The notes under the pieces: model-generated
Seen by the model: only the letters and a program-made list of their open reading frames with translations
Told to the model about the DNA's origin: nothing
Databases searched by the model: none
Made by a program: the position numbers and the translations under genes
Assembly: GCA_026984835.1 (NCBI GenBank)
Contig: JALSRI010000178.1
Location: 10,430 to 74,429, forward strand
DNA length: 64,000 nt
Direction of reading: 5' to 3'
Source of the DNA: Thiohalobacter sp.
GTDB lineage: Bacteria; Pseudomonadota; Gammaproteobacteria; DSM-19610
In this document: positions 1,980 to 29,266 of the stretch, piece after piece
Layout: each line of letters starts with the position of its first letter
Numbering within the stretch: position 1 is the first letter of the stretch

Positions 1980-4007
1980 GTGACGGAGCAGCGCCGCAGC
2001 GTCACGGTCGCCCTCGCCGCCATACCCAACACCGGCAAGACCACCCTGTTCAACCAGCTCACGGGGGCGCGTCAGAGCGTCGGCAACTGGGCCGGCGTGA
2101 CGGTGGCGCGGCGGGTGGGTCATTTCGAGCTGGGCGACTACGATGTCGAGCTGGTCGACCTGCCCGGCGCCTATTCCATCAGCCCCACCACCGAAGAGCA
2201 GCGCATCGTCGAGCGCTACCTGATGCAGACGCCCCCCGACGTGGTGCTCAACCTGCTCGACGCCCGCAACCTGTACCGCGGCCTCGGGCTGACCCTGCAA
2301 CTGGCCATGAGCGGCCTGCCCACGGTGGTGGCGGTGAACATGATGGACGAGGCGCGGCGCCAGGGCCTGGATATCGACATCGACGCCCTGTCACGGCACC
2401 TGGGCATGCCCGTGGTGCCCATCGTGGCGCGCAGCGGCGAAGGGCTGGAACAGCTCAAGGCCGCGCTGCGGGAGGTGATCGAACATCCGGAGACCGAGCA
2501 TCCGCCGCACATCTCCTTCCCGCCGGTGGTCGAGGAACAGGTCATGGAACTGGCGCGCCGCATCGACGCCTTGCCGGAGCGGCCGCCGCTGGACGAGAGT
2601 CTCATCGCCCTGCAACTGCTGAAGGGGGAGGGTGAGCAGGAAGTGCTGGACCCACGCGTACCCGGTTCCGGGGCGGTCGTCGAGGAAGCCGCACGGCGAC
2701 GCCGGACCATAGAGGCCGTGACCGGCCAGCCGTTTGCCACCACCTGCGCCGAGTGCCGCTTCAACGCGGCCCGCGGCCTGGCCATGGAGGCGACCCATGC
2801 CCTGCCGCGGGTCCGCGACGCCGTCGCCAACCGCCTGGACGCGGTGCTGCTGCACCCGCTGTTTGGCCTGCCGCTCTTTTTCCTCATCATGTTCGTGCTG
2901 CTGCAGGTGATCTACGCCATCGGTTTTCCCCTCCAGGATGCGGTGTCGAGCCTGTTCGCGGCCCTGGACGGCTGGTTGCGCGCGCTGGCGCCGCTGCGGG
3001 CCCTGCCGCCCCTGCTGCGCAGCTTCCTGCTCGACGGCCTGGTGGCGGGCGTCGGCGTGGTGGTGACCTTCTTCCCGCTGCTGGCGGTGTTCTTCGTGCT
3101 CATGTCGGTCATGGAGGGCAGCGGCTACATCGCCCGCGCCGCCTTTCTGATGGACCGGCTGATGCATGCGCTGGGACTGGACGGCAAGGCGTTCATCAAC
3201 ATCCTGCTCGGCTACGGCTGCAACGTGCCGGCGGTGATGGGCACCCGTATTCTGTCCAGTCACCACAACCGCATCGTCGCCATGCTGCTGGTGCCGTTCT
3301 CGCTGTGCAGCGCGCGACTGCAGGTGTTTGTGTTCCTGTCGGCCATCCTGTTCGCGCCGTCCACGGCGGCGCTGGTGTTGTTCGGCTTGTACGCGGGCAG
3401 CTTCCTGGCGGTGGTGCTGGTGGGGCTGGTGCTCAAGGCCCTGCGCATCGGCGGCCGGCCCGAGCCCTTCATCATGGAGCTGCCACCCTACCGCGTGCCC
3501 TTGCTGCGCAGCGTGCTGCTGCGCGCCTGGCAGGAGATCCGGGCCTTCCTGCGCCGCGCCGCGACCCTGATCCTGTCCGGCGTGGTGGTGGTGTGGCTGC
3601 TGACCCACGTGCCGGCAGACGTTCCGCCGGGCAGCGCCGGGACCCTGGCCGGCCGGCTCGGCCAGTCGCTGGCCTTCCTGTTCCAGCCGCTCGGCATCCA
3701 CTGGCAGGAGACGGTGGCGCTGATGTTCGGCTTCATCGCCAAGGAGATCGTCATCGGCTCCATGGCGGTGATCCATGGCGGCGGCGACCTGGCCGCGCAG
3801 ATCGAACGGCTGGTGACGCCGCTGCAGGGCCTGAGCTTCATGGTGTTCACCCTGTTGTACACGCCGTGCGTGGCGACCGTGGCGAGTATCCAGGCGGAGT
3901 CGCATTCGTGGAAGGTGACGGCCCTGTCGGTCGGCCAGGGACTGGCGCTGGCCTGGCTGGCCAGCTTCCTGGTCTACCAGGGCGGGCGCCTGCTGGGCTA
4001 CGCCTGA
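1980..4007 (+). CDS. feoB: ferrous iron transporter FeoB
   Basis: N-terminal G-domain (AIPNTGKTTLFNQLTG, DLPG) followed by a polytopic membrane domain. GTG at 1980 chosen because the upstream part of ORF 1869-4007 is Arg/Pro-rich and overlaps feoA. Confidence 0.9.
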   Translation: MTEQRRSVTVALAAIPNTGKTTLFNQLTGARQSVGNWAGVTVARRVGHFELGDYDVELVDLPGAYSISPTTEEQRIVERYLMQTPPDVVLNLLDARNLYRGLGLTLQLAMSGLPTVVAVNMMDEARRQGLDIDIDALSRHLGMPVVPIVARSGEGLEQLKAALREVIEHPETEHPPHISFPPVVEEQVMELARRIDALPERPPLDESLIALQLLKGEGEQEVLDPRVPGSGAVVEEAARRRRTIEAVTGQPFATTCAECRFNAARGLAMEATHALPRVRDAVANRLDAVLLHPLFGLPLFFLIMFVLLQVIYAIGFPLQDAVSSLFAALDGWLRALAPLRALPPLLRSFLLDGLVAGVGVVVTFFPLLAVFFVLMSVMEGSGYIARAAFLMDRLMHALGLDGKAFINILLGYGCNVPAVMGTRILSSHHNRIVAMLLVPFSLCSARLQVFVFLSAILFAPSTAALVLFGLYAGSFLAVVLVGLVLKALRIGGRPEPFIMELPPYRVPLLRSVLLRAWQEIRAFLRRAATLILSGVVVVWLLTHVPADVPPGSAGTLAGRLGQSLAFLFQPLGIHWQETVALMFGFIAKEIVIGSMAVIHGGGDLAAQIERLVTPLQGLSFMVFTLLYTPCVATVASIQAESHSWKVTALSVGQGLALAWLASFLVYQGGRLLGYA

Positions 4008-4024: not shown

Positions 4025-4864
4025 TCAGCCGCCGTCGCCGTGTGCCAGGGCGTGGTACTTGCAGCGGATGGCGTCGATGTCGACGCGCGCCGGCGGCAGC
4101 TTCATGTCCAGGGATTCCAGCGTTTCCTGCACGATGCGCGAGATCACCAGGTTGCGATACCACTTGTGGTCGGCGGGGATCACGAACCAGGGCGCATGCC
4201 GGGTGCTGCATTTCTCCAGCGCGTCTTCGTAGGCGCGCTGGTAGTCGTCCCAGAACGCCCGTTCCGAGTAGTCCGATTCGCTGATCTTCCAGTGCTTGGA
4301 CGCATCTTCCAGACGCTTGCCGAAACGCTCCAGCTGCTCTTCCTTGCTGATGTGCAGGAAGAACTTCAGTATGCGCACGCCGCTGTCGGCGAGCTGTTTC
4401 TCGAAGGCGTTGATGGCCGCGTAGCGCTTCGACCAGACCTTTTTCCTGACCAGTTCGTGCACGCGCACCACCAGCACATCCTCGTAGTGCGAGCGGTTGA
4501 AGATGACCACCTCGCCGCGCCGCGGCGTCACCTTGTGCACCCGCCACAGGAAGTCGTGCGCCGCCTCCTCTTCGGTCGGCGCCTTGAAGGGCTGCACCCG
4601 GCAGCCCTGCGGATTCATATGACCGAGTACGTGGCGTATGGTGCCGTCCTTGCCGCCGGCGTCCATGGCCTGCAGGCAGATCAGCAGGGCATGGCGGTTC
4701 TCTGCATACAGCAGGTACTGGAGTTCGCGCAGGCGCTGGTTGGCCTGCACGATTTCCGCGCGGGCCTGCTGCTTGTCGCTCTTGCCGTCGGTGTCGCCGG
4801 GGTCGATGCGGTCCAGCCTGAGCTTCGAACCCGGTTCCACGCGGTATTTCCTGGTGTAGTCCAC
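4025..4864 (-). CDS. polyphosphate kinase 2 family protein (polyP:nucleotide phosphotransferase)
   Basis: PPK2 hallmarks: LICLQAMDAGGKDG Walker-A-like loop, FNRSHYEDVL, WYRN. Confidence 0.85.
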   Translation of the reverse strand: MDYTRKYRVEPGSKLRLDRIDPGDTDGKSDKQQARAEIVQANQRLRELQYLLYAENRHALLICLQAMDAGGKDGTIRHVLGHMNPQGCRVQPFKAPTEEEAAHDFLWRVHKVTPRRGEVVIFNRSHYEDVLVVRVHELVRKKVWSKRYAAINAFEKQLADSGVRILKFFLHISKEEQLERFGKRLEDASKHWKISESDYSERAFWDDYQRAYEDALEKCSTRHAPWFVIPADHKWYRNLVISRIVQETLESLDMKLPPARVDIDAIRCKYHALAHGDGG

Positions 4865-4885
4865 TGTTTTCCTCCTTCCGTCGTA

Positions 4886-7582
4886 TCAATGCTGCCGCCG
4901 CCAGCGCAGCCATTTCCAGGTTTCCATGAAAACGAACACGGGTAGCGCGATGGCGAAGATCAGGGCCCAGTCCACCCAGCCCAGCGTCACGGTGTGCAGG
5001 GCGTCCTGGAGCACGGGCAGGTAGACGGCGCCTACCTGCAGGCCCACGGTTGCCAGCCAGGCGCCCAGCACCCAGGGATTGGTGAAGAAGCCGATCACCG
5101 CCACCGGTTCCGCCAGGGCGCGGAAATTGAAGACGTTCATCTTCTCCAGCACGATGATGCCGGTGAAGGCCACGGTCTGGGCCAGGGCGACGGCCTCTTC
5201 CCCGCCGGTCTGCAGGTAATGGTGGAACAGCCACAGGGTTCCGGTGGCGATGTAGACCCCCAGCGCCAGGATCATCAGCATGCCGGTCCGGTCGAGGATG
5301 GGCTGGCGTGCGGCGCGCGGCGGGCGCTGCATGACGCCCTTCTCGGCCGGCTCCAGGCCCAGGGCCACGGCCGTCATGCCGTCGGTCACCAGGTTCATCC
5401 ACAGGATCTGCACCGGCAGTAGAACCAGAGGGCCGCCCAGCACGATGTTGACGAAGATGGCCAGTACTTCGCCGGTATTGGAGGACAGCAGGTAGCGCAC
5501 GAACTTCTGGATATTGTCGTACTGGCGCCGGCCCTCCTCGACGGCGCCGATGATGGAGGCGAAGTTGTCGTCGGTGAGCACCATGTCGGCGGCGCCCCTG
5601 GCCACGTCGGTGCCGCGCAGGCCCATGGCGATGCCGATGTCGGCCTTCTTCAGCGCCGGGGCGTCGTTGACGCCGTCACCGGTCATGGCCACCACCTCGC
5701 CCAGTCCCTGCAGCAGGGTGACGATGCGCAGCTTGTTGGCCGGCGTGGTGCGGGCGAACAGGACGTGGCCGCTCAGTGCCTGCTTCAGGTCCTCGTCGTC
5801 CAGTGTATCCAGTTCCCGGCCCGTGATGGCGCGTTCCACCGGCAGGCCGATGCGCCGGGCTATGGCCAGGGCGGTGGCGGCGGCGTCGCCGGTTATCATG
5901 AGCGGGCGGATGCCGGCGCCGCGCGCCAGCTCGACGGCCCGCGGCACTTCCGGACGCGGCGGGTCGATGATGCCGACCACGCCCAGCAGGGTGAGTTCGT
6001 TCTCCACCGCGTCCTCGTCGAGGTGGATATCGGGGGGCAGGGTGCGGCGCGCCAGCGCCAGGGTGCGCAGCCCGGATTCGGCCATGGCCGTGTAGGCCTG
6101 CGTGACGGCGGCGCGGCCGGCGTCGTCCAGTTCCCGCTCGACGCCGTCGACGAGCATGCGCGTCGAGCGTTCCAGGATGACCTCGGTCGCCCCCTTGACG
6201 AAGGCCACCATGCCCCCGGGGCGGTGCTCGATGAGGGTCATGCGCTTGCGCAGGGAATTGAAGGAGAATTCGGTGACCGTGTGCGCCTCCGTATCCGGCG
6301 ACAGCCAGGCCTTGCAGGCGGCGACCACCAGCGCCGCCTCGGTGGGTTCGCCGATCTGGTGCCAGCCGCGCTCGTCGCGTTCGATGCGGGCGTGGTTGCA
6401 GCGCAGGCCCGTTTCCAGCAGCGCCAGCAGATCGGTGCGCCGCCGGTAGTCGATCTTCCTGCCGTCCACTTCGAAATGGCCGGCCGGGTCGTAGCCGCTG
6501 CCCGTGACCTCGACTTCTCCGGCCGGCAGCCAGATGCGACGCACGGTCATCTCGTTCCTGGTCAGGGTACCGGTCTTGTCGGTGCAGATTACGGTAGCCG
6601 CGCCCAGGGTCTCGGCCGCCTGCAGGCGACGCAGCAGGGCCTTGCGGCGCACCATGGCGCGGATGCCCAGCGCCAGTGTAATGGTCACCACGGCCGGCAG
6701 CCCCTCCGGCACCACTGCCACCGCCAGGGAGACGCCGGTGAGGAACATCTCCAGCAGCGGCTTGCCCAGCAGCCAGCCGGTCGCTGCGACCACGACGGAG
6801 ACGGCGACCGAGAACAGCCCCAGCTGCTGGCCCAGCACCGCCAGCTTGTGCTGCAGCGGCGTGGTTTCCTCGCCGACGCTCTGGGTGAGGCGGGCGATAC
6901 GGCCGAATTCCGTGTCCATGCCGGTCGCGACGACCAGGCCGCGTCCGCGTCCGTTGGTGATGCTGGTGCCCATCCAGGCCATGCTGCGCCGCCCGGCCAG
7001 TGGCGTGTCGGCGGGCACGGGCTCCACGGCCTTGTGCACCGAGACCGACTCGCCGGTCAGTGCCGATTCGTCGGCCTTGAGATTGACGGCCTCGACCAGG
7101 CGCAGGTCGGCGGGCACGCGATCGCCGATCTCCAGCAGCACCAGGTCACCGGGCACCAGTTCGCCTGCATCGATCTCCAGCTCGTTGCCATTGCGCAGCA
7201 CGGTGCAGCGCGGAGACAGCATGCGCTGCAGTGCGGCCATGGCCTTTTCGGCCTTCCATTCCTGAACGAAACCCAGGACACCATTGAGACCGACGATGGC
7301 GAGTATGGTGAGGGCGTCGCCGGTCTCGCCGATGGTGAAGGAAATGACGGCGGCGACCAGCAGGATGAGGATGAGCACGTCGACGAACTGGCGCGCCAGC
7401 ACCTGATACCAGTGCTCGCGTCTGGCGACCTCGAGCACATTGGGGCCGTGTTCCACCAGGCGCCGCGCGGCGTCGGCGGCATCGAGGCCGTGGGCGGGAT
7501 CGGTCCGCAGCGCGGACGCCAGCACGGCCAGGGGCTGCGCGTGCCAGTCGCCGGCCGGCACTTCAGTCGCCATGCCGCTCAC
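4886..7582 (-). CDS. cation-transporting P-type ATPase (type IIA-like, Ca2+/Mg2+ class)
   Basis: ICTDKTGTLT phosphorylation motif, [26 protein letters not shown], ten predicted TM segments. Start is GTG 7582 or ATG 7573; both overlap the end of the upstream antiporter gene. Confidence 0.9.
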   Translation of the reverse strand: MSGMATEVPAGDWHAQPLAVLASALRTDPAHGLDAADAARRLVEHGPNVLEVARREHWYQVLARQFVDVLILILLVAAVISFTIGETGDALTILAIVGLNGVLGFVQEWKAEKAMAALQRMLSPRCTVLRNGNELEIDAGELVPGDLVLLEIGDRVPADLRLVEAVNLKADESALTGESVSVHKAVEPVPADTPLAGRRSMAWMGTSITNGRGRGLVVATGMDTEFGRIARLTQSVGEETTPLQHKLAVLGQQLGLFSVAVSVVVAATGWLLGKPLLEMFLTGVSLAVAVVPEGLPAVVTITLALGIRAMVRRKALLRRLQAAETLGAATVICTDKTGTLTRNEMTVRRIWLPAGEVEVTGSGYDPAGHFEVDGRKIDYRRRTDLLALLETGLRCNHARIERDERGWHQIGEPTEAALVVAACKAWLSPDTEAHTVTEFSFNSLRKRMTLIEHRPGGMVAFVKGATEVILERSTRMLVDGVERELDDAGRAAVTQAYTAMAESGLRTLALARRTLPPDIHLDEDAVENELTLLGVVGIIDPPRPEVPRAVELARGAGIRPLMITGDAAATALAIARRIGLPVERAITGRELDTLDDEDLKQALSGHVLFARTTPANKLRIVTLLQGLGEVVAMTGDGVNDAPALKKADIGIAMGLRGTDVARGAADMVLTDDNFASIIGAVEEGRRQYDNIQKFVRYLLSSNTGEVLAIFVNIVLGGPLVLLPVQILWMNLVTDGMTAVALGLEPAEKGVMQRPPRAARQPILDRTGMLMILALGVYIATGTLWLFHHYLQTGGEEAVALAQTVAFTGIIVLEKMNVFNFRALAEPVAVIGFFTNPWVLGAWLATVGLQVGAVYLPVLQDALHTVTLGWVDWALIFAIALPVFVFMETWKWLRWRRQH

Positions 7583-8816
7583 CCTTCCCGGGCAGTGCTT
7601 GCGGCTTTCGCCGCAGTTCCTCGCCCCAGCTGCGCACCAGCAGGGTAAAGGCGAGCGGCACCACCAGTGTCGATACCGAGGAGGCGGCGACCAGGGCGGT
7701 GAACAGCTTGATATCGATCAGCCGCGCGTCGAGCAGCAGCTTGGCGACGATGATCTCGGTGGTCAGGCGCGCGTTCAGCCCGATGCCGATGGTCCAGGCT
7801 TCGCGCACATCGATCTTGCCCATCGGCACCATGACGAAGATCCCCAGCAGCTTGCCGACGAAGGCGGCGAGAAACAGCAGCAGGGCGAGCTCCGGTTGCC
7901 GCAGCATGCCCTCCAGGTCCACGCTCAGGCCGACCCAGAAGAAGAATACCAGGCCGAAGAAGCCGTAGCTGATGGCGCGCACCGCACGCGTGGCCTGGGC
8001 ACCGCCCTCGCCGGCGTGCCGGAACACGGGACCGAGCAGCACGCCGGCGGTGATGGCGCCGACCACGGTGCCGAGTTCGGAGTGCTGGGAGTAGCCACCG
8101 AGGCCGAACAGCACCAGCATGGTGAGCAGGATCAGGTTGCGCGGCCGTGGCGCCAGCCAGCGGGCGAGCTGCGGCAGGATCCAGCGGTAGCCGAGCCATG
8201 CCACCAGGGCGAACACCAGCAGGCTGACGACGACGTCGAGTACCTCGCGCTCCGTGGCCATGATGGCGCCGCTCTTTTCGCCGATCCACACCGATACCAG
8301 CGCGACCAGGAATACCTCGATCACGTCGTCCAGCACGCCGGCGCCGACGATGAATTCGCCCACCCGCGTGCGGACGAGCTGGAATTCGTCGAGGATGGGG
8401 ACGATCACCGCCTCCGCTGTCGGCATGCGTGTAAGACCGATGATGAAGGCGATGCCCCAGCCGTAGCCCAGCGCCCACATCACCAGCACGCCGAGCAGGA
8501 ACGGTACGCCGGTGTTGAGCACCGTGGCCCAGACGATGTCCCGGCTGAGCCTGCGCATCTCTCCCAGGTCGATCTGGAGGCCGATGAAGAACAGCAGGAA
8601 CAGGACCCCGAGCTGGGCCAGGAACGCGAACGCATCTCCCAGTGGCGCCCGGACGAGTTCGACGTGGAGCGGGGTGTAGTGCACCGCCATCGCCACGAAC
8701 AGGGCGCCGAGGATGCCGGGGATGCGCAGCCTTTCCAGCAGGCCTGCGAGGCCGAAGGTCAGGCCGAACAGAACCGCCAGCAGCAGGAGCAGCAAGCCTG
8801 TCTCGCTTTCACTCAT
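7563..8816 (-). CDS. cation:proton antiporter (CPA2 / Kef-NapA-like)
   Basis: 417 aa polytopic membrane protein with Na_H_Exchanger-like helices throughout. No RCK domain visible. Confidence 0.75.
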   Translation of the reverse strand: MSESETGLLLLLLAVLFGLTFGLAGLLERLRIPGILGALFVAMAVHYTPLHVELVRAPLGDAFAFLAQLGVLFLLFFIGLQIDLGEMRRLSRDIVWATVLNTGVPFLLGVLVMWALGYGWGIAFIIGLTRMPTAEAVIVPILDEFQLVRTRVGEFIVGAGVLDDVIEVFLVALVSVWIGEKSGAIMATEREVLDVVVSLLVFALVAWLGYRWILPQLARWLAPRPRNLILLTMLVLFGLGGYSQHSELGTVVGAITAGVLLGPVFRHAGEGGAQATRAVRAISYGFFGLVFFFWVGLSVDLEGMLRQPELALLLFLAAFVGKLLGIFVMVPMGKIDVREAWTIGIGLNARLTTEIIVAKLLLDARLIDIKLFTALVAASSVSTLVVPLAFTLLVRSWGEELRRKPQALPGKGERHGD

Positions 8817-8912
8817 CTATCCTGTTTCTCCTGGCAGGGCTCCGGCAGCAGGGCATTGCCCCGACGGAGTACTCCCGCCAGGGTTCAGCCACGCCGGTTG
8901 GCAGCCGGGGGC

Positions 8913-11516
8913 TCAGGCATACAGCCCCTCGCGGCGCAGCAGGGCGAAGGTGCCTTTCTTCACCGCGTCGTTGAACAGACCCCAGGCCAGGGCGTAGGCC
9001 CAGATGTAAGCGGCCCATTGCCAGCCGACCGGTTCCACCCACCAGCCATAGACACCGATCAGCGTGCCCAGCACGGCGCTCCAGAAACTGGCGTGCAGCA
9101 GGGCCGGAGCCGGCAGCGGGCGCTTCCACATCCAGTCCTCGGTGCGGGTGACGAAGATGGTGGTATGGCCGGCCACGATGAGCTTGAGGAAGATGACCGA
9201 CTGGATGAAAGGCTCGGGATAGTCGAGCTGCTGGAGGATGAAGAACAGCAGGAAGGAACTGACGACGCCGGCCACGCCAAGGACGCTCGACACGATCATC
9301 AGCTCCTGCAGGTTCCAGCGCACCGGCTCCTGCTGCACGCGGGTGTTGTCGTAGGCGATGGCCAGGATGGGGATGTCGTTGAGCAGCGCCAGGATGACGA
9401 TCATGATGGCGGTGATGGGGTAGAAGTTGAACACCACGATGGACAGCGTCATGAACAAGAGCACGCGGATGGTTTCCGCGATGCGGTAGACGGCATAGGA
9501 TTTCATGCGCTCGAAAGTGATGCGGGCCTGTTCCATGGCGTGGCCGATGACCGACAGGCCAGGCGCGGTGAGAATGATGTCGGCGGCGGCGCGCGCCGCG
9601 TCGGTGGCGTTGGCGACAGCGAAGCCGCAGTCGGCTTTTCTGAGCGCCGGCGCGTCGTTGACGCCATCGCCGGTCATGCCGACGATATGGCCGGCTTTCT
9701 GCAGGGTCTCCACCAGCGCGTACTTGTCCTCGGGTACCACCTCGGCGAAGATGTCGACCGATTCGATCATCTCCACCAGGGCGGATTCGTGGGTGTGCAC
9801 GAACTCCTGCTCCAGCAAGCGGGTATCGAACAGGTGGTCCAGCTCCTCGATGACTTCGCTGGCGAAGTGGCGCGCCTCCTTGACCGAGACTTGCGGGTTG
9901 AGCTTGTGATAGATGGCGGTCGTCAGCGCCTCGGCCAAGGCCATCAGTTCACTGCCGGACTTGCCGGACAGCTGCTCCGAGCGCATGGCGCGCGGTTCCA
10001 GGCCCAGCAGGCGACCGATCTCGCGGGCGATGGCGATGTTGTCGCCGGTCACCATCTTGACCCGTACACCGTAGTCGCGCATGGCCTCGATGACGGCGGC
10101 CGAGTCTTCGCGCGGCGGATCCATGAGCGGGATCAGGCCGATGATCTCGGGCGGCTGTTTGTCTTCCTGGCGTGCCACCACCAGGGTGCGGTAGCCCTTG
10201 CTGGCCAGCAGGTCGATGGTGCGGCTGATGGCGATGCGTTCGTTGTCCGGCATCTCGGCCATTTCCAGCAGCACCTGGGCGGCGCCCTTGAACACCCGGA
10301 AGCGCCGGCCGTCGCGCTCGATCTCCGCCTCGGTACGCTTGCGCACCGGGTCGAAGGGCGTGAACCCGAGCTGACGGTACGCCTGCCAGTCGCTGTCCGG
10401 GAAGTGCTCGTCGATGTAGTGGAACAGCGGCAGCTCGATCGGGTCGTGGTTCTCCTTGCGTGATGCCAGCACGGCATACAGGAACAATTCCCGCTCGTCA
10501 TGGCCGTCGAGCACAACCGGTTCGGCGACATGCATTTCGTTCCGGGTCAGGGTGCCGGTCTTGTCCGAGCAGAACACGTCCACCCCGGCCAGTTCCTCGA
10601 TAGCCGTCAGGCGTGACACGATGGCCTGGCGCCGCGCCAGGTTCATCGCCCCCACCGCCATGGTGACGGACAGCACGGCGGGCAGGGCCACGGGTATGGC
10701 GGCCACGGTCAGCACCATGGCGAAGCGCAGGATCTCCAGGAAATCCTCATGGCGGAACAGCGCCACCATGAGGATCAGCAGTACCAGCGCGATGGTGACG
10801 ATGATGAGGAAGTTGCCGATCCTGATGACCATCTGCTGGAAGTGGCTGCGCTCCTCCAGCGAGGCCCGGGCCACCAGCGCCACCACAGAGTGGAAGCGGG
10901 TGCTGGCGCCCGTGTTGACCACCACGGCGCGCATCTCGCCCTGTTTGACGATGGTATTGGTGTAGGCGACCTCGCCGCGACGCCGGGTCACCGGCAGGGA
11001 TTCGCCTGTCAGCGCCGACTGGTCGATGGCCAGGTAGTCGCCATCCAGCAACTGTACATCGGCGGGCACCACGTCACCGATCTTCAGCTTGATGATGTCG
11101 CCGGGCACCAGTTCGCGCGCCGGGACCACCTGCCAGTCACCGTCGCGCAGCACGGTGACTTCCAGCGCCATCCTGCGCTTGAGCGCTTCCAGGGCATTCA
11201 TCGCCCGGTGCTCCTGCAGGAAATCCAGGCCGGCGTTGACCAGCAGCATCACGACGATGATGCTGAAATCCTCCCATTTCCCCACCAGCGCCGAGAGTAC
11301 CGCGGCGGTCTCTATCATCCAGGGGATGGGGCCCCAGAAGCGGCGGAAGATGCGATGCCAGAGCGGCTCGACCTTTTCCTCGCTCTCGTTGTAGCCGTAG
11401 CGCTGAAGCCTGGCCCGGACCTCGTCGCTGCGCAGGCCGCTGTCGGCGTCAACGTCGAGTTCGCGCAGGGTGCGGTCGACGTCCTGCCCCAGGTAGTCAT
11501 CCGTCTGTCGGTTCAT
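8913..11516 (-). CDS. P-type ATPase, plasma-membrane proton-pump (type IIIA)-like
   Basis: N-terminus GLRSDEVRARLQRYGYNE...[43 protein letters not shown] 11516 chosen because the longer ORF start at 11657 lies inside ftsH. Confidence 0.85.
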   Translation of the reverse strand: MNRQTDDYLGQDVDRTLRELDVDADSGLRSDEVRARLQRYGYNESEEKVEPLWHRIFRRFWGPIPWMIETAAVLSALVGKWEDFSIIVVMLLVNAGLDFLQEHRAMNALEALKRRMALEVTVLRDGDWQVVPARELVPGDIIKLKIGDVVPADVQLLDGDYLAIDQSALTGESLPVTRRRGEVAYTNTIVKQGEMRAVVVNTGASTRFHSVVALVARASLEERSHFQQMVIRIGNFLIIVTIALVLLILMVALFRHEDFLEILRFAMVLTVAAIPVALPAVLSVTMAVGAMNLARRQAIVSRLTAIEELAGVDVFCSDKTGTLTRNEMHVAEPVVLDGHDERELFLYAVLASRKENHDPIELPLFHYIDEHFPDSDWQAYRQLGFTPFDPVRKRTEAEIERDGRRFRVFKGAAQVLLEMAEMPDNERIAISRTIDLLASKGYRTLVVARQEDKQPPEIIGLIPLMDPPREDSAAVIEAMRDYGVRVKMVTGDNIAIAREIGRLLGLEPRAMRSEQLSGKSGSELMALAEALTTAIYHKLNPQVSVKEARHFASEVIEELDHLFDTRLLEQEFVHTHESALVEMIESVDIFAEVVPEDKYALVETLQKAGHIVGMTGDGVNDAPALRKADCGFAVANATDAARAAADIILTAPGLSVIGHAMEQARITFERMKSYAVYRIAETIRVLLFMTLSIVVFNFYPITAIMIVILALLNDIPILAIAYDNTRVQQEPVRWNLQELMIVSSVLGVAGVVSSFLLFFILQQLDYPEPFIQSVIFLKLIVAGHTTIFVTRTEDWMWKRPLPAPALLHASFWSAVLGTLIGVYGWWVEPVGWQWAAYIWAYALAWGLFNDAVKKGTFALLRREGLYA

Positions 11517-13404
11517 TCCCGCCGCCTTCGGTTTCCCTGACCACCTGCTGGACTTCCTCGCCATCGATGACTTCCTTCTCGCGCAGGCGGGCGGCCAGCG
11601 CGTCCAGGGTATTGCGCCGCGCAGTGAGGATCTCCCGCGCCCGCCGGTGGCCCTCATCGACCAGGGCGCGGACTTCCTCGTCGATCTGGCGCGCCGTCTC
11701 CTCGCTGTAGTTGCGTTCTTCCTGTTCCACGCCCAGGTACATGAGCTGCTGGTGCTTTCCGAAGGTCAGCGGGCCCAGCTTGTCGCTCATGCCGAGCCGG
11801 GTGACCATGGAGCGGGCGATTTCGGTGGCGCGTTCCAAGTCGTTGGAGGCGCCGCTGGAGACGTCGCCGTAGACGATCTCCTCGGCCACCCGGCCGCCCA
11901 GCAGGATGGCGATCTGGTCCTTGAGCTCGCTGACCGTGGACAGGAACTTCTCTTCCACCGGCAGTTGCAGGGTATAGCCCAGCGCCGCCACGCCGCGCGG
12001 GATGATGGAGACCTTGTGCACCGGTTCGCCGGTCGGCACCGTCACGGCCACCAGGGTATGGCCGGATTCATGGAAGGCCACGCGTTCCTTCTCTTCGTCG
12101 CCCAGACCCCGGTGTTTCTTCTCGGGACCGGCGATGACGCGGTCGATGGCGGCCTCGAAGTCGTCCATGGTGACGGCCTCGTGGTTCAGGCGCACGGCAT
12201 GGATGGCGGCCTCGTTGGCGATGTTGGCGAGGTCCGCGCCGACGAAGCCCGGCGTACGTTGCGCCACCACGCGCAGGTCGACGTCTTCGGCCAGCTTCAT
12301 GCCGCGGGTGTGGACCCTGAGGATGGCCTCGCGCGCCTCCAGGTCGGGCTTGTCGACCACGATCTGGCGGTCGAAGCGGCCGGCGCGCAGCAACGCCTTG
12401 TCGAGGATCTCGGGGCGGTTGGTGGCCGCCATCACCACCACGCCCACCGACGGGTCGAAGCCGTCCATTTCGGTGAGCAGCTGGTTCAGCGTCTGTTCGC
12501 GCTCGTCGTGCCCGCCCACCGGGGAGCCCATGCCCCGCGCGCCGCCGATGGCGTCCAGCTCGTCGATGAAAATGATGCAGGGAGCCTTCTGGCGCGCCTG
12601 CTCGAACAGGTCGCGGACCCGTGCCGCGCCCACGCCGACGAACATTTCGATGAACTCCGAGCCGCTGATGCTGAAGAAGGGTACCCGGGCCTCGCCGGCC
12701 ACCGCCCGCGCCAGCAGCGTCTTGCCGGTGCCGGGCGGGCCCATGAGCAGCACGCCCTTGGGCATGTGGCCGCCGAGACGCTGGATACGGGCCGGGTCCT
12801 TGAGGAAGGCGATGGTCTCGGCCAGTTCCTGCTTGGCCTCTTCGGCGCCGGCGACGTCGTCGAAGGTGACCTTGACGTCCTCCTCCGAATGGATGCGCAC
12901 CTTGTTGCCGATGTTGAGGAAGCTTCTGCCCATGCCGCCCATGCGCTGGGCCATCCAGCCCCACAACAGGAACAGCAGGCCGAAGGGCAGCACCCAGTTG
13001 AAGAAGAAATTGCTCAGCCAGTTGTCGCCCTGGCGCACGACGAACTTGACGCCATGCTTTTCCAGGTTCCTGGCCAGGTCGTTGTCCCACAGCGGAATGG
13101 TGACGAAGCGCCTGGGTTCCTGGGTGGCCGGGTCCTTGAGGGTCAGGGTGCCGGTGATGACTTTCCGGGTGACGACGGCCTCCGCCACCTCACCTTTCTC
13201 GACGTGTTCCAGGAACTCGCTGTAGGGGATCTCGGTCCGGCGCACCTCGCGGTAGCCCTGCCACAGGTAGAAGGACACCACCAGGAAGATGATGTACAGC
13301 CAGAGGGTGAAGTCGGGGCGCTGCCAGAACTTGCGTTCGGCCGGCTTGTTGATCTCGATTTCCGGTTTTTTGTTGCTGCCGACCTTGAAATGGCTCTTCT
13401 TCAT
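11497..13404 (-). CDS. ftsH: ATP-dependent zinc metalloprotease FtsH
   Basis: N-terminal TM pair, AAA+ Walker A GPPGTGKT, second region of homology, HESGH zinc site. Confidence 0.95.
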
Positions 13405-13461
13405 GGCGTCCTCGTCGGGTTGGCGTGCGTGCCGCAGTGGTCAGCGGACAGGATACACCGC

Positions 13462-13490
13462 ATAATGGTGCCCGACCCGGCGCGATTCAA
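13462..13490 (-). promoter_or_regulatory. sigma70-like promoter candidate for ftsH operon (TTGAAT-17-CATTAT)
   Basis: Read on the minus strand: -35 at 13490-13485, -10 at 13467-13462. ftsH ATG is at 13404. Confidence 0.3.
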
Positions 13491-13514
13491 GCCCGTTTCC
13501 CGCAAGGAGCCGTC

Positions 13515-13916
13515 ATGCTCGTTGGAATCCTGTTCATCTGGCTGGTCACGGCCTTCGGCCTGTGGATCGTCACCCTGGTGGTGCCCGGCGTCACGGCGCG
13601 TTCGACGGGCAGCCTGCTGCTGGCGGCGCTGGTGCTGGGCCTGGTCAACGCCTTCATCCGGCCGCTGCTCTGGTTGCTGACCCTGCCGCTCACGGTGCTG
13701 ACCTTCGGCCTGTTCGCGCTGGTCATCAATGCCTTCACCCTCTGGTTCACCGGCGCCGTGGTCAACGGCTTCGAGGTGCGCGATTTCGCTTCGGCGCTGC
13801 TGGCGGCGCTGGTCATGGCGCTGCTGGGCCTGGCCGGCTTCATCCTGCTGCAGTGGCTGATGATGGGCGAGGTGCACTGGATGTACATGACCGGCCGGCA
13901 AGGCGTCTACCTGTAG
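13515..13916 (+). CDS. DUF360 / phage holin 4_2 family membrane protein
   Basis: Four hydrophobic helices with FIRPLLWLLTLPLTVLTFGLF typical of the family. ATG 13515 preceded by AAGGAG. Confidence 0.6.
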   Translation: MLVGILFIWLVTAFGLWIVTLVVPGVTARSTGSLLLAALVLGLVNAFIRPLLWLLTLPLTVLTFGLFALVINAFTLWFTGAVVNGFEVRDFASALLAALVMALLGLAGFILLQWLMMGEVHWMYMTGRQGVYL

Positions 13917-13954
13917 GGGCTTTCCCTGCGAAGCTGCGGCGGTGGCCCGGACAT

Positions 13955-14737
13955 TCAGGCGCGGCCGCCGCCTGCGCGGGCATGGATCAGCACGTAGCGC
14001 AGGCCGAGCAGCACCAGGAAGAGGCCGAAGAAGGCCCGCAGCCGGGCCTCCGGCAGCGCCAGCGCCAGGTGGCTGCCGACGGCGGCGCCGGCCAGTGCAC
14101 CGATGGCCAGCGGCAGCACCAGCGGCCGGCAGACATTGCCCAGCCGCCAGTTCTCCCAGCTGCCGGCCAGCGTCGCCGGCAGCCGCGCGGCCAGCGAGCA
14201 GCCCTGGGCGAGTTGCTGCGGCATGCCCAGCCCCAGCACGAACAGCGGCGCCAGCACCGGTCCGCCGCTGATGCCGACAACGCCGGCGACCAGACCCTCG
14301 ACGATGCCCACCCCGACCAGGTAGGGTGCCGACCAGGGTTCCTGTATCACCCAGCCCGCCGGCAACTGTTCCCGGAAGATCACCAGCAGGCCGCCCACTG
14401 CCACCACGGCGCCGAATTCGCGCTTGAGCGTGTCCGGCGGCAGGCGTTCCGACCAGGCCGCCGCCAGCGGCGTGACGATCATCGACGGAATGGCCACCCA
14501 CAGTACCGTCCACAGGTCGACCTGGCCGCGCAAGCCGTAGACGGCCGTGCCGGTGGCGGCCGAGAAGACCGCCACCGTGATGGCCGTGCCGCGCGCCGCC
14601 AGCGGTGCCAGTCCGGCCCAGCCCATGAGCAGCGGGATCACCAGCGTACCGCCGCCGAGACTGACCAGGCCGCCGCCGAAGCCGGCGACGAAACCGATGC
14701 CGAGACCCTTGAGCCAGGACGGGCGTTGCGGTTGCAC
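13955..14737 (-). CDS. TauE/SafE family sulfite/anion exporter
   Basis: Gly-rich polytopic protein with a two-fold internal repeat (GGGLVSLGGG, GISGGPVLAP). GTG 14737 chosen, 7 nt after the glgP stop. Confidence 0.7.
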   Translation of the reverse strand: MQPQRPSWLKGLGIGFVAGFGGGLVSLGGGTLVIPLLMGWAGLAPLAARGTAITVAVFSAATGTAVYGLRGQVDLWTVLWVAIPSMIVTPLAAAWSERLPPDTLKREFGAVVAVGGLLVIFREQLPAGWVIQEPWSAPYLVGVGIVEGLVAGVVGISGGPVLAPLFVLGLGMPQQLAQGCSLAARLPATLAGSWENWRLGNVCRPLVLPLAIGALAGAAVGSHLALALPEARLRAFFGLFLVLLGLRYVLIHARAGGGRA

Positions 14738-14744
14738 GGCGCGC

Positions 14745-17252
14745 TCAACGCTGCCAGAGAATGCGGTTGGCCTCCAGCGGCACACTGGCATGCGGGTGCG
14801 CCGGTACCACCCGCACCGTGTAGTCACGGGCCGGTCGCTGGGCGGGAATCAGGGCAGAGTAGCGGTAACCGTTCACCGCGCCGGCGAGTTCCTCCATGCG
14901 TTGCAGGGGATAGCGTTCCGGCATCGACTCCGCGTCGTGGGGGTCGGCATAGAGTTCCACGCGGACGCTGTCCGGATCCAGGTCATCGAGGTACAGCTGG
15001 ACCTCGACGCCGATCTTCAGATCGTCCTCCTCGATCACGACATTGCCGAAATGGAGGGCCGGCCAGTGCAACTCGATCTGGCGCTGCCAGTCACGGATGG
15101 CGCGGGCCAGGGCGGCGTCATCTGCCGAGCGCGCCTGCGCCGCGCGGGCCAGCGGCAGGTAGTGGGCTTCCGTGTATTCGCGCAGCATGCGGTTGGTGGA
15201 GAAGCGCGGCGTGAGCTCCGCCATGCTGCGGCGCATGTGTGCCACCCACTCCCGTGGTATGCCCTGGGCGTCGCGGTGGTAGAACAGCGGCACGATCTCC
15301 TGTTCCAGCAGCCGGTACAGGGCCTCTGCCTCTTTGGCGTCCCAGGCCGGGTCGGCGTCGTGTTCGCGGCCGTCGCCGAGGCGCCAGCCCAGCCCCGGCT
15401 GCCAGGCCTCGGCCCACCAGCCGTCCAGTTCGGACAGGTTCAGACCGCCGTTGACCAATACCTTCATGCCGCTGGTGCCGCAGGCCTCCCAGGGCCGGCG
15501 CGGGGTGTTGATCCAGACGTCGATGCCTTCCACCAGGTGACTGGCGGCGAGCAGATCGTAGTCCACCAGGAACACCGTGTGGCGTCCTAGGTCGTGGTCG
15601 CGGATGAAACTGAACCACTCACGGATCATGGCCTGGCCTTCGTGGTCCCGGGGGTGCGCCTTGCCGGCGATGACCAGTTGTACGGGTTGCTCGCTGCGCC
15701 TGAGCAGCGCCGCCAGCCGGGCCGGTTCGTGCAGCAGCAGGTTGGGTCGCTTGTAGGTGGCAAAGCGGCGCGCGAAGCCGAGGGTCAGGATGTTGGGATC
15801 GAGCAGGTCGCCCGGGCCACGGTTGGCCGGTTGTTGATAGTCCCTGCGGCGGCGCAGCCATTCGACGAGCCGCTGGCGGTTGCGGGTGCGCATTTCCCAC
15901 AGCTCGGCATCCGACACCCGGTAGATGGCGTCCTTCATTTCCTGCAGTTCGTCGCGCCAGCGGTCCTTGCTGCAGGCGGTCGTCCACAGGCGGTCCGACT
16001 CCACCGAGTCCCAGCTCGGCACGTGCACGCCGTTGGTGACGTGGCCGACCGGCACTTCAGCGTTCGGCCAGCGCGGAAACAGCGGTTCGAACAGCCGGCG
16101 GCTGACCTGGCCATGCAGGCGGCTCACGCCGTTGACGGCGGCGCTGCCGTGGATGGCCAGCCAGGCCATGTTGAAGGGCTCGTTCGCATCGTCCGGGTTG
16201 GCGCGGCCCAGGGCCAGCAACGCGTCCGGCGCCAGCCCGGCCCGTTCGCACCAGGGCGCCAGGTAGTGGCGCACCAGCCCGGGTGCGAAGCGATCGAAGC
16301 CGGCATCCACCGGCGTATGGGTGGTGAACAGGTTGCCGGCACGGGTCGCCACCAGGGCGGTGGCGAAATCCGTGTCCTGGCGTGCCTTGAAGGCGCGCGC
16401 CCGTTCCAGCACCGCGAAGGCGGCGTGGCCCTCGTTGAGATGGCAGGCCCCGGGCGTTGCCCCCAGCTGTTCCAGCAGTCGCCAGCCACCCACCCCCAGC
16501 ACCAGTTCCTGCTGCAGGCGCAGTTCCGGTCCGCCGCCATAGAGCTCGCTGGTGATGCCGCGGTCAGCGGCGTCGTTGAGCGGGTGGTTGCTGTCCAGCA
16601 GGTAAAGGCGGACCCGGCCCACCTGCACCTGCCAGACGCGCAGCAGCAGTTCGCGGCCGGGGAATTCGAGGCGGACGGTCAGCCATTCGCCGTCGGCGTT
16701 GCGCATCGGGGTCGCCGGCAGCAGGGTGGGGTCGTTGTAGGGGTAGAAGGCCAGCTGGTTGCCGTCGGCGTCCAGCGCCTGGCGAAAATAACCCTGCTGG
16801 TAGAGCAGGCCGATGGCCTGCAGCGGCACACCCAGTTCGGAGCAGGTCTTGAGATGATCGCCGGCCAGTACGCCAAGCCCGCCCGAGTACAGGGGCAGCG
16901 CCTCGCTGAGGCCATACTCCATGCAGAAATAGGCCACCGGCTCCAGTCCGCCGGCGCCGTACTTTTGTGAGAACCAGGTATCGCCGCCCAGGGCCGCCTT
17001 CTGTTCCTCGCGCAGTTCCCGCAACAGGGTGCGGAAGTCTGCATCGCCGGCCAGCGCCTGCAGCCGTCCCAGGCTGACCGTCTGCAGTATCAGCCAGGGA
17101 TTGCGGGTATGGCGCCACAGCGGTTCGTCGATGCGTCGCCACAGGGCATCGGCCACATGGCTCCAGGACCAGCGCAGGTCCAGCGCCAGCAGGCGCAGGT
17201 CTGCCAGTTCCTGCGGCAGGTCGGGGCGTGCTTCGTAGGGCATGTGATCCAT
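14745..17252 (-). CDS. glgP: alpha-glucan (glycogen/maltodextrin) phosphorylase, GT35
   Basis: 835 aa. PLP-lysine region EACGTSGMKVLVNGGLNLSELDGWW. Confidence 0.9.
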   Translation of the reverse strand: MDHMPYEARPDLPQELADLRLLALDLRWSWSHVADALWRRIDEPLWRHTRNPWLILQTVSLGRLQALAGDADFRTLLRELREEQKAALGGDTWFSQKYGAGGLEPVAYFCMEYGLSEALPLYSGGLGVLAGDHLKTCSELGVPLQAIGLLYQQGYFRQALDADGNQLAFYPYNDPTLLPATPMRNADGEWLTVRLEFPGRELLLRVWQVQVGRVRLYLLDSNHPLNDAADRGITSELYGGGPELRLQQELVLGVGGWRLLEQLGATPGACHLNEGHAAFAVLERARAFKARQDTDFATALVATRAGNLFTTHTPVDAGFDRFAPGLVRHYLAPWCERAGLAPDALLALGRANPDDANEPFNMAWLAIHGSAAVNGVSRLHGQVSRRLFEPLFPRWPNAEVPVGHVTNGVHVPSWDSVESDRLWTTACSKDRWRDELQEMKDAIYRVSDAELWEMRTRNRQRLVEWLRRRRDYQQPANRGPGDLLDPNILTLGFARRFATYKRPNLLLHEPARLAALLRRSEQPVQLVIAGKAHPRDHEGQAMIREWFSFIRDHDLGRHTVFLVDYDLLAASHLVEGIDVWINTPRRPWEACGTSGMKVLVNGGLNLSELDGWWAEAWQPGLGWRLGDGREHDADPAWDAKEAEALYRLLEQEIVPLFYHRDAQGIPREWVAHMRRSMAELTPRFSTNRMLREYTEAHYLPLARAAQARSADDAALARAIRDWQRQIELHWPALHFGNVVIEEDDLKIGVEVQLYLDDLDPDSVRVELYADPHDAESMPERYPLQRMEELAGAVNGYRYSALIPAQRPARDYTVRVVPAHPHASVPLEANRILWQR

Positions 17253-17255
17253 GGT

Positions 17256-29225: not shown

Positions 29226-29266
29226 ATTCTAGCGCATACGCCGCCGCGTGCCTTGATGCGGATCAA
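29226..29266 (-). promoter_or_regulatory. FNR/CRP-family box (TTGATgcggATCAA, 29253-29266) plus -10-like TAGAAT (29231-29226) upstream of ppsA
   Basis: Perfect 14-bp palindrome. Its centre is about 40.5 bp upstream of the start site implied by the -10 hexamer. ppsA ATG is at 29166. Confidence 0.6.

Follow-up and report, generated by a model that had tools for sequence, protein, structure and literature searches.

Why should a membrane protease, two P-type ATPases, a cation/H+ antiporter and a polyphosphate kinase stand in series on one strand of a bacterial genome? The question is raised by a 64,000-nt stretch of DNA from Thiohalobacter sp., an uncultured gammaproteobacterium of the sulfur-sediment type (GCA_026984835.1, contig JALSRI010000178.1, positions 10,430 to 74,429; hereafter the window), in which five minus-strand genes encode in order an FtsH protease, a P3A-type ATPase, a CPA2-family antiporter, a P2A-type ATPase and a PPK2 enzyme. 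The open reading frame (ORF) listing agrees on this series with the Pfam and NCBIfam scans and with genes called independently on the source contig. With a probability of about 0.55, the five genes constitute a single operon, put together in this lineage from stress-island parts that move horizontally and driven by a sigma-32 (RpoH)-type promoter. On the best reading of its gene content, the operon would be a stress-induced kit, run on ATP and polyphosphate (polyP), which re-energises the membrane, restores ion balance and brings its own quality-control protease.

The gene string and its junctions

The string, its promoter candidate and the neighbours that bound it are as follows.

11497-13404, minus strand: accessory ftsH, 635 aa, a membrane AAA+ zinc protease
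8913-11516, minus strand: P3A-type ATPase of the 'a-type' (plasma-membrane H+-ATPase-like), 867 aa, likely start ATG 11516
8817-8912, minus strand: spacer between the P3A and CPA2 genes, 96 nt, structured, without a U tract
7563-8816, minus strand: CPA2-family cation/H+ antiporter, 417 aa, PF00999
4886-7573, minus strand: P2A ATPase (SERCA/SPCA/CtpF-like), 895 aa from ATG 7573 or 898 aa from GTG 7582
4025-4864, minus strand: class III PPK2 (polyP:AMP/ADP phosphotransferase), 279 aa
13465-13491, minus strand: sigma-32 (RpoH)-type promoter candidate, CTTGAA-N15-CACCAT(TAT), ~60-87 nt 5' of the ftsH ATG
13515-13916, plus strand: DUF360/Phage_holin_4_2 membrane protein gene, divergent neighbour and upstream limit of the operon
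1980-4007, plus strand: feoB (stop at 4007), preceded by feoA, convergent neighbour and downstream limit of the operon

The ftsH stop and the P3A start overlap by 20 nt, a purine run resembling a Shine-Dalgarno sequence lying upstream of the P3A ATG at 11516. The CPA2 stop and the P2A start overlap by 11 nt (from ATG 7573) or 20 nt (from GTG 7582), and between the P2A gene and PPK2 lies a gap of 21 nt that contains a strong GGAGGA ribosome-binding site. The original prediction had described this series, both overlaps and the short gap, and all were confirmed; together they argue for coupled expression. At the remaining junction, from P3A to CPA2, the 96-nt gap has a stable fold of two hairpins (-49.6 kcal/mol, z = -2.1) that lack a U tract, and no promoter-like or convincing terminator-like site was found in it. 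Across the operon, internal intrinsic-terminator and sigma-70 sites did not exceed shuffled expectation, and none was convincing. The five genes probably constitute one transcription unit, with transcription presumably running across the 96-nt gap. As a separate observation, this spacer may be an mRNA processing or stability element.

The same earlier account had counted three P-type ATPases within 18 kb, two of them paralogous, and this was borne out. Three P2/P3-type ATPases lie in 17.3 kb (4886-22150), one of them being a second P3A copy (IIIA_b, 19640-22150), 8 kb off and 48% identical to the operon P3A, in an operon of the order ppsA-pta-LOG-RNase-ackA-P3A-xfp-glgP-tauE. Its family calls for pumps, antiporter and PPK2 likewise proved right.

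The GC content at third codon positions (GC3) of the operon is 0.88-0.90, near the genome value, which indicates that the assembly is not recent. A recent foreign origin judged by composition was rejected on the same figure.

The ftsH promoter and the case for low oxygen

Between ftsH and the divergent DUF360 gene, 110 nt are left as a promoter region. This holds CTTGAATCGCGCCGGGTCGGGCACCATTAT (13465-13491, minus strand), read as CTTGAA-N15-CACCATTAT, which matches the E. coli dnaKp1 sigma-32 consensus CTTGAA-N14-CCCCATTTA (PMC10216364). In the 64-kb window it is the sole match to CTTGAA-N13-16-CNCCAT, for which 0.06 are expected by chance. The block is kept 5' of the orthologous ftsH in three further genomes, G223 (CTTGAA-N14-CCCCATTAT), G021 and G008, the flanking sequence having diverged. 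A slightly stricter motif gave five hits genome-wide, at the accessory ftsH, grpE-dnaK, a TrxC-like thioredoxin gene, a CnoX/YbbN-like gene and one other; relaxed forms stand 5' of lon, ibpA and probably htpG, and rpoH itself is encoded in the genome (contig C147). The best inference from these matches is that the heat-shock sigma factor would drive the operon. With such a promoter, the string would be a novel combination of components already familiar from the stress-survival islands of bacteria.

Two further promoter elements were noted. A sigma-70-like promoter for the DUF360 gene, TGGTCA-17-CATAAT (13438-13466, plus strand), lies back to back over the sigma-32-type ftsH promoter. CIRCE-type inverted repeats, TTAGCACTC-N9-GAGTGCTAA, are found 5' of groES (genome G000, contig C110) and of rpoH (contig C147), which suggests that HrcA controls the heat-shock sigma factor gene in this gammaproteobacterium.

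Loss of respiration had been proposed as the trigger of the gene set, and this part of the original prediction was not supported: no FNR/Anr box lies 5' of ftsH, and a sigma-32-type promoter is conserved there instead. In the 110-nt region neither TTGAT-N4-ATCAA (with up to one mismatch) nor TTGA-N6-TCAA was found, and the latter does not occur across 4-13.5 kb either, where only a 1-mismatch site at 7708-7721 was met. This site falls in the CPA2 coding sequence, on the codons for the conserved LIDIK, and lacks a -10 element; it is therefore probably coincidental. FNR/Anr control of the five-gene operon was rejected, as the ftsH promoter has no site and the sole internal match is coding.

An anoxic role of the operon is a question apart from its promoter. 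The five genes could serve survival at low oxygen or during fermentation, as a module induced together with the FNR-controlled ppsA-pta-ackA-P3A-xfp-glgP operon and maintaining ion gradients and adenylate charge without respiration, in the manner of the lxa and DosR gene sets. The window holds two perfect TTGA-N6-TCAA sites; one, at ppsA (29253-29266), heads this adjacent operon, and the other lies at a universal stress protein (USP) gene, usp (48710). Elsewhere, FtsH proteins of the same clade (described below) are encoded beside Crp/Fnr-family regulators, glgP, xfp and USP genes. However, no FNR-like site is conserved 5' of the CPA2 units or of 50 ftsH genes of the clade, and the conserved motif is of the sigma-32 type. 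A low-oxygen module is accordingly possible but doubtful as the primary reading. Because the neighbouring fermentation operon could supply ATP, an anoxic role is plausible, and a low-oxygen trigger remains plausible from that operon; stress-sigma control and an anoxic role could coexist.

The likeness to known low-oxygen islands is nonetheless part of the argument. The genes retrieved for the lxa locus of Burkholderia cenocepacia J2315 include those of an ATP-dependent Zn protease (BCAM0309), up 130-fold when O2 is low, and of a cation-transporting P-type ATPase (BCAM0318), beside ackA, a pta-like gene, a metal-dependent RNase, a LOG-type 'lysine decarboxylase' and USPs (PMC3721108, Sass et al. 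2013). The window resembles it as an accessory island in which the same families are spread over two adjacent operons with Anr/FNR-type regulation nearby, the two proteases being likened by family. It differs in that its protease is translationally coupled to a P3A pump and accompanied by CPA2 and PPK2, none of these three being among the retrieved lxa genes. In regulation, a sigma-32-type promoter stands before the five-gene operon and an Anr box is missing there, whereas the next (ppsA) operon has the Anr/FNR-type site.

The second comparison is with CtpF of Mycobacterium tuberculosis, a hypoxia-induced, SERCA-like pump regulated by DosR (PMC6879984). As in that system, a SERCA-like P2A ATPase stands within a stress or dormancy gene set, and in relatives of the window a USP gene precedes the P2A gene. 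ctpF itself likewise adjoins a USP gene, Rv1996. The window differs in that its P2A gene is paired with CPA2, the USP gene is lost and the regulation is not by DosR and may be sigma-32-like; its Ca2+ transport is a prediction.

Predicted activities of the pumps, the antiporter and the kinase

The operon P3A scores 895.6 bits against TIGR01647 (cut-off 615.5), and the copy in the xfp operon 991.8 bits. Its best solved relatives are Arabidopsis AHA2 (551 bits) and yeast/Neurospora Pma1 (538 bits). Aligned to 5ksd, it keeps the equivalents of AHA2 Asn106, Arg655 and Asp684 (in VNAG, ETIRVL and LLNDIP), respectively the TM2 Asn, the TM5 Arg and the proton-acceptor Asp. The residue numbering of this proton site follows the established AHA2 numbering and PMC10654040. 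On these grounds the operon P3A is proposed to be an electrogenic H+ pump that would move one H+ per ATP. The terminal regulatory domains of AHA2 and Pma1 are absent from it. It bears a P-domain insert of ~51 aa, which is common to pumps of three other lineages (loci L087, L031 and L055) and is missing from the second copy, IIIA_b.

Bacterial P3A pumps fall into two subtypes by this feature. In the 'a-type', the ~51-aa insert with a conserved HES motif lies between the TGDN and FAEVxPExK segments (residues ~519-579 of the 867-aa operon protein), and the insert-free 'b-type' is represented by window 19640-22150, G011 and L009; both types are found beside clade FtsH genes. A recent (2023) review describes prokaryotic P3A pumps as mainly archaeal, with their transport function not determined (PMC10654040). 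In 40 of 400 sampled genomes of the same class a P3A-type ATPase was detected (E <= 1e-150), a frequency that exceeds the picture of a mainly methanogenic archaeal distribution in that review, and many of these genes adjoin glgP, xfp, ackA and a beta-CASP RNase gene. Bacterial pumps of this plant/yeast type have no established function, and the operon offers a testable hypothesis for them, namely ATP/polyP-powered re-energisation of the membrane under stress.

The CPA2 protein matches PF00999 with 146 bits, above the cut-off, and TIGR00932 with 109 bits, below the cut-off of 238, and consists of the membrane domain only, with no RCK/KTN domain. In alignment to NapA, its VLDDV corresponds to D156/D157, GKLLG to K305 and NARL to R331. 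These residues point to an electrogenic exchanger of H+ for Na+ or K+.

For the P2A ATPase, the best solved relatives are human SPCA1 (607 bits), Listeria LMCA1 (522 bits) and SERCA2 (~508 bits). Its scores lie below the NCBIfam equivalog cut-offs (748 against 798 for TIGR01522, 659 against 703 for TIGR01116), as is expected for the bacterial branch. Alignment to SPCA1 places the ion-site motifs at PEGL in M4, SSNTGEV in M5, NLVTD in M6 and LEKMN, with its Glu, in M8, and the motif residues presumably correspond to SERCA E309, N768, E771, N796, T799, D800 and E908. With SERCA-like ligands in M4, M5, M6 and M8, Ca2+/H+ exchange is the likeliest activity, and the pump most likely exports Ca2+ in exchange for H+.

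The antiporter and the P2A ATPase also belong together by gene order. Among the CPA2 loci with enough downstream DNA to be informative (11 metagenome loci, 'Gammaproteobacteria bacterium Milos-ODIII6' (L087) and G223), a P2A ATPase gene lies downstream of CPA2 in all 13 of 13, as a rule separated from it by a USP gene, with stops that overlap the next starts; the window pair has no intervening USP gene. CPA2-(Usp)-P2A is a conserved unit, now defined, and it appears previously undescribed.

The PPK2 scores 389.7 bits against TIGR03709 (cut-off 247.2) and has a single PPK2 domain. Its nearest structures are the single-domain PPK2 entries 5lc9, 5o6k and 6an9, deposited as polyphosphate:AMP phosphotransferase, together with 3rhf and 6au0 (the latter labelled 'Class III'). 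Enzymes of class III phosphorylate both AMP and ADP from polyphosphate; the window PPK2 is of this class and is predicted to act on AMP and ADP. The genome has one PPK1 and one PPK2, the latter being the window copy, and no PPK2 more than 51% identical was found among the relatives searched. A sole class III PPK2 fits the idea that the gene set serves adenylate charge.

Taken together, these assignments suggest a mechanism. A sigma-32-activating stress would be the trigger, for instance heat, membrane proteins that are misfolded or damaged, or proteotoxic conditions of another kind. The P3A pump would expel H+ at the cost of ATP, so that the membrane potential and the pH of the cytoplasm could be rebuilt independently of the respiratory chain. 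The antiporter, of the Asp-Asp type, would spend the H+ gradient on the expulsion of Na+ or K+, and the P2A ATPase would export Ca2+ for H+, the two acting as a working pair. PPK2 would turn AMP into ADP and ADP into ATP from polyphosphate made by PPK1, feeding the pumps and the protease, and the neighbouring FNR-boxed fermentation operon could supply further ATP. Breakdown of polyphosphate would also free bound divalent cations and K+, which the exporters could remove, and this may be a rationale for placing exporters beside PPK2. The accessory FtsH would survey or turn over the pumps, which are abundant and polytopic, along with other membrane proteins that have been damaged. In E. coli, sigma-32 is degraded by the housekeeping FtsH, so that a role of the accessory FtsH in feedback on sigma-32 is conceivable as well.

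Sulfur-oxidising gammaproteobacteria of sediments keep stores of polyphosphate and are exposed to fast changes of redox state and temperature. Kits of this sort may account for their survival when the energy supply is interrupted.

The accessory FtsH and the recurrence of its neighbours

The window FtsH scores 779.4 bits against TIGR01241 (cut-off 600) and matches FtsH_ext, AAA, AAA_lid_3 and Peptidase_M41 in Pfam. It is intact, with Walker A GPPGTGKT, Walker B IIFIDELD, the pore loop MFVGVG, the arginine-finger region (second region of homology) and HESGH, and has transmembrane helices at 32-50 and 133-151. The order rlmE-ftsH-folP-glmM is the canonical context of the gammaproteobacterial housekeeping ftsH. 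Within the 2.87-Mb assembly it is found around a second ftsH on contig C104, with rlmE upstream and folP and glmM downstream, and not around the window gene, the two proteins being 47-49% identical. The window ftsH is thus an accessory copy, as had been supposed when a search for a housekeeping gene was recommended. A housekeeping-type ftsH occurs in all but one of the 40 relatives searched, the exception being an incomplete assembly, and the window type in four of 24 genomes of the same family and in one genome of another family.

In a maximum-likelihood tree, the window FtsH falls inside a clade of 49 sequences (SH-aLRT 100) from Gammaproteobacteria (Sedimenticola, Chromatiales, methanotrophs, Halieaceae), Desulfobulbaceae, Acidobacteriota, Ignavibacteriota and Myxococcota. 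Its closest orthologue, in genome G003, is 88% identical. The Desulfobulbaceae sequences are nested among gammaproteobacterial ones, which indicates lateral transfer. Culturable relatives with an FtsH of this clade include Congregibacter variabilis and Methylomonas sp. TEB. A cytoplasmic N-terminal extension of ~30 aa, bearing a shared motif with FWQ, is common to the clade and is lacking in housekeeping FtsH. Apart from this clade, two tandem plus-strand ORFs on contig C212 of G000 (10199-13753 and 13659-15758; 1184 and 699 aa) have weak Peptidase_M41-like domains (81 and 66 bits); they align with FtsH over just a part of the sequence, at no more than 32-36% identity, and so are divergent FtsH-like proteins.

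The tree also bears on whether the operon belongs to the tLST (transmissible locus of stress tolerance) or LHR (locus of heat resistance) type of island. A tLST on an E. coli plasmid carries cls-ftsH-sHsp-yfdX1-yfdX2-hdeD...trx and a cation:proton antiporter (PMC8290217), and in the wider window cls and yfdX occur together with a CPA2 gene and an accessory ftsH. Alphaproteobacterial plasmids pair accessory FtsH with Hsp20, DegP, YbaL and ackA/pta, and the operon has a heat-shock-type promoter. The two share horizontal spread, an accessory FtsH, cardiolipin synthase, YfdX, a KefB/CPA2-type antiporter and a link to heat or envelope stress. However, the clade of the window FtsH is set apart from both housekeeping and tLST FtsH groups. 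The protein is 51-54% identical to the accessory FtsH of tLST and of alphaproteobacterial plasmids (51% for tLST), on a separate, well-supported branch, and neither clpK/clpG nor sHsp20-GI, hdeD or trx-GI is among the called genes of the window from 1 to ~39 kb. P-type pumps and PPK2 are not among the tLST genes in the one example examined, so that the window adds the P2A and P3A pumps and PPK2. Membership of the tLST type was rejected on the differing FtsH clade and the core genes missing over the region just given, and is very improbable.

A tentative proposal, on the unlikely side, goes further than the operon itself. The FtsH clade could be a dedicated partner protease of P2/P3 pumps, governing their abundance and their clearance when damaged, and with P3A and PPK2 it would make up a self-contained unit that re-energises the membrane independently of respiration. 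It rests on three traits of the clade, namely the ~30-aa N-terminal extension, the spread across phyla and the repeated placement beside P2A/P3A ATPases. In Salmonella, FtsH degrades the P-type ATPases MgtA and MgtB (PMC10580885), a precedent in which the protease acts on P3-type ATPases and so sets pump levels. There it is the housekeeping FtsH that acts, along with the small proteins MgtS/MgtU, and its gene is not linked to those of the pumps, whereas the window has a dedicated paralogue in the same operon as them. With the accessory FtsH clade defined here, which spreads between phyla and shows a tendency to adjoin P-type pumps, this FtsH-MgtA/B precedent extends to dedicated paralogues; if the partner-protease proposal is true, bacterial P3A ATPases would gain their first defined physiological role.

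How far, then, is the gene string conserved beyond the window? A P2/P3 ATPase lies within 6 kb of FtsH in nine of 54 clade loci, in varying order and orientation, as against none of 26 loci of other FtsH (Fisher's p = 0.027, not corrected for phylogeny). Besides these nine, G011 has a further such neighbourhood, and in L036, another gammaproteobacterium, a P-type ATPase-x-PPK2-transaldolase operon converges on the clade FtsH. L087 has P3A-CPA2-Usp-P2A-x-Usp-FtsH on one strand, with PPK2 absent. The closest layout is that of G223, a complete genome of another family, which reads feoAB> <PPK2-ppsA-zrp-P3A-APC permease-ftsH, DUF360>, <tauE at 69-82% protein identity. The flanking genes correspond to those of the window, the DUF360 gene at ftsH being 81% and feoB at PPK2 78% identical, and CPA2-Usp-P2A lies 4 kb away on the opposite strand. 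The window looks like a compaction of this layout, in which the CPA2-P2A unit has been set between P3A and PPK2. The skeleton ftsH...P3A...PPK2 with its flanks in G223, the CPA2-P2A pair and the enrichment of pumps at clade FtsH genes show that the association of these genes is beyond chance.

Several points nevertheless weigh against one stress-driven operon. The exact five-gene order was found in none of 54 FtsH-centred loci, 19 CPA2-centred metagenome loci, the 88%-identical relatives or 20 P3A-centred loci (partial synteny in G223 only), and is unique to the window genome among the genomes searched. The ftsH of G003, 88% identical, is monocistronic between chromate transporter and cupin genes; the neighbourhoods of clade FtsH genes are very variable; and none of the 40 relatives searched has the CPA2 gene. 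These four points favour the view that the adjacency has no functional meaning, the accessory genes having piled up in a variable region where they are transcribed and used independently. Against that view stand the overlaps at two junctions and the 21-nt gap at a third, the recurrence of sub-modules in different orders in unrelated lineages, and a GC3 so well ameliorated that a fresh insertion is not indicated; meaningless adjacency is improbable.

Other points concern the promoter, the transcript and the functions. The window -10 element (CACCATTAT) has one mismatch to CCCCAT, and the sigma-32-type motif is confined to the nearest FtsH group of the window (82-88% identity), being absent 5' of 48 other clade ftsH genes and of that of G003. 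Neither an FNR-like nor a sigma-32-like motif was conserved clade-wide, 5' of 48-50 clade ftsH genes or of the CPA2 units. With the motif missing in more distant members, control differs between lineages; in other lineages, Crp/Fnr-family regulator genes, USP genes or others stand before or after ftsH. The structured 96-nt spacer could split the genes into two transcripts. P2A and CPA2 score below their NCBIfam equivalog cut-offs, which leaves their ion specificity uncertain. The source is a metagenome-assembled genome with an estimated contamination of 4.3%, yet all parts stand on one 100-kb contig.

Since the parts are conserved and the whole order is not, the single operon under a sigma-32-type promoter is best seen as a lineage-specific assembly from a shared pool of mobile stress genes. 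The dedicated module of the original prediction survives in part: its sub-modules and synteny recur, and a class III PPK2 fits the maintenance of adenylate charge, but the exact order was found only in the window genome. Hypoxia or proteostasis islands with an extra FtsH and cation pumps are already known from lxa (PMC3721108), DosR (PMC6879984) and tLST (PMC8290217). The operon resembles these islands and is not a new kind of system. Four features appear undescribed: an FtsH paralogue coupled to a bacterial P3A, a P3A subtype with the insert, the conserved CPA2-(Usp)-P2A unit and the presence of the sole PPK2 in the string.

A few observations concern the genes around these strings. An APC-family amino-acid permease (~440 aa) is encoded directly 3' of clade FtsH genes in nine of 55 loci, its start overlapping the ftsH stop in G223, and an M90 (MtfA-like) peptidase takes this position in six of 55. 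At the L087 string, a PHO4/PiT-type phosphate transporter gene (positions 1-816) lies directly upstream of P3A-CPA2-Usp-P2A-FtsH, which fits a link of the gene set to phosphate or polyphosphate turnover. Near the start of the window, a 1-mismatch FNR-like site, TTGATATGGATCAG (617-630), lies ~90 nt 5' of a DUF883-type trio that runs into feoA-feoB, consistent with FNR-activated uptake of Fe(II).

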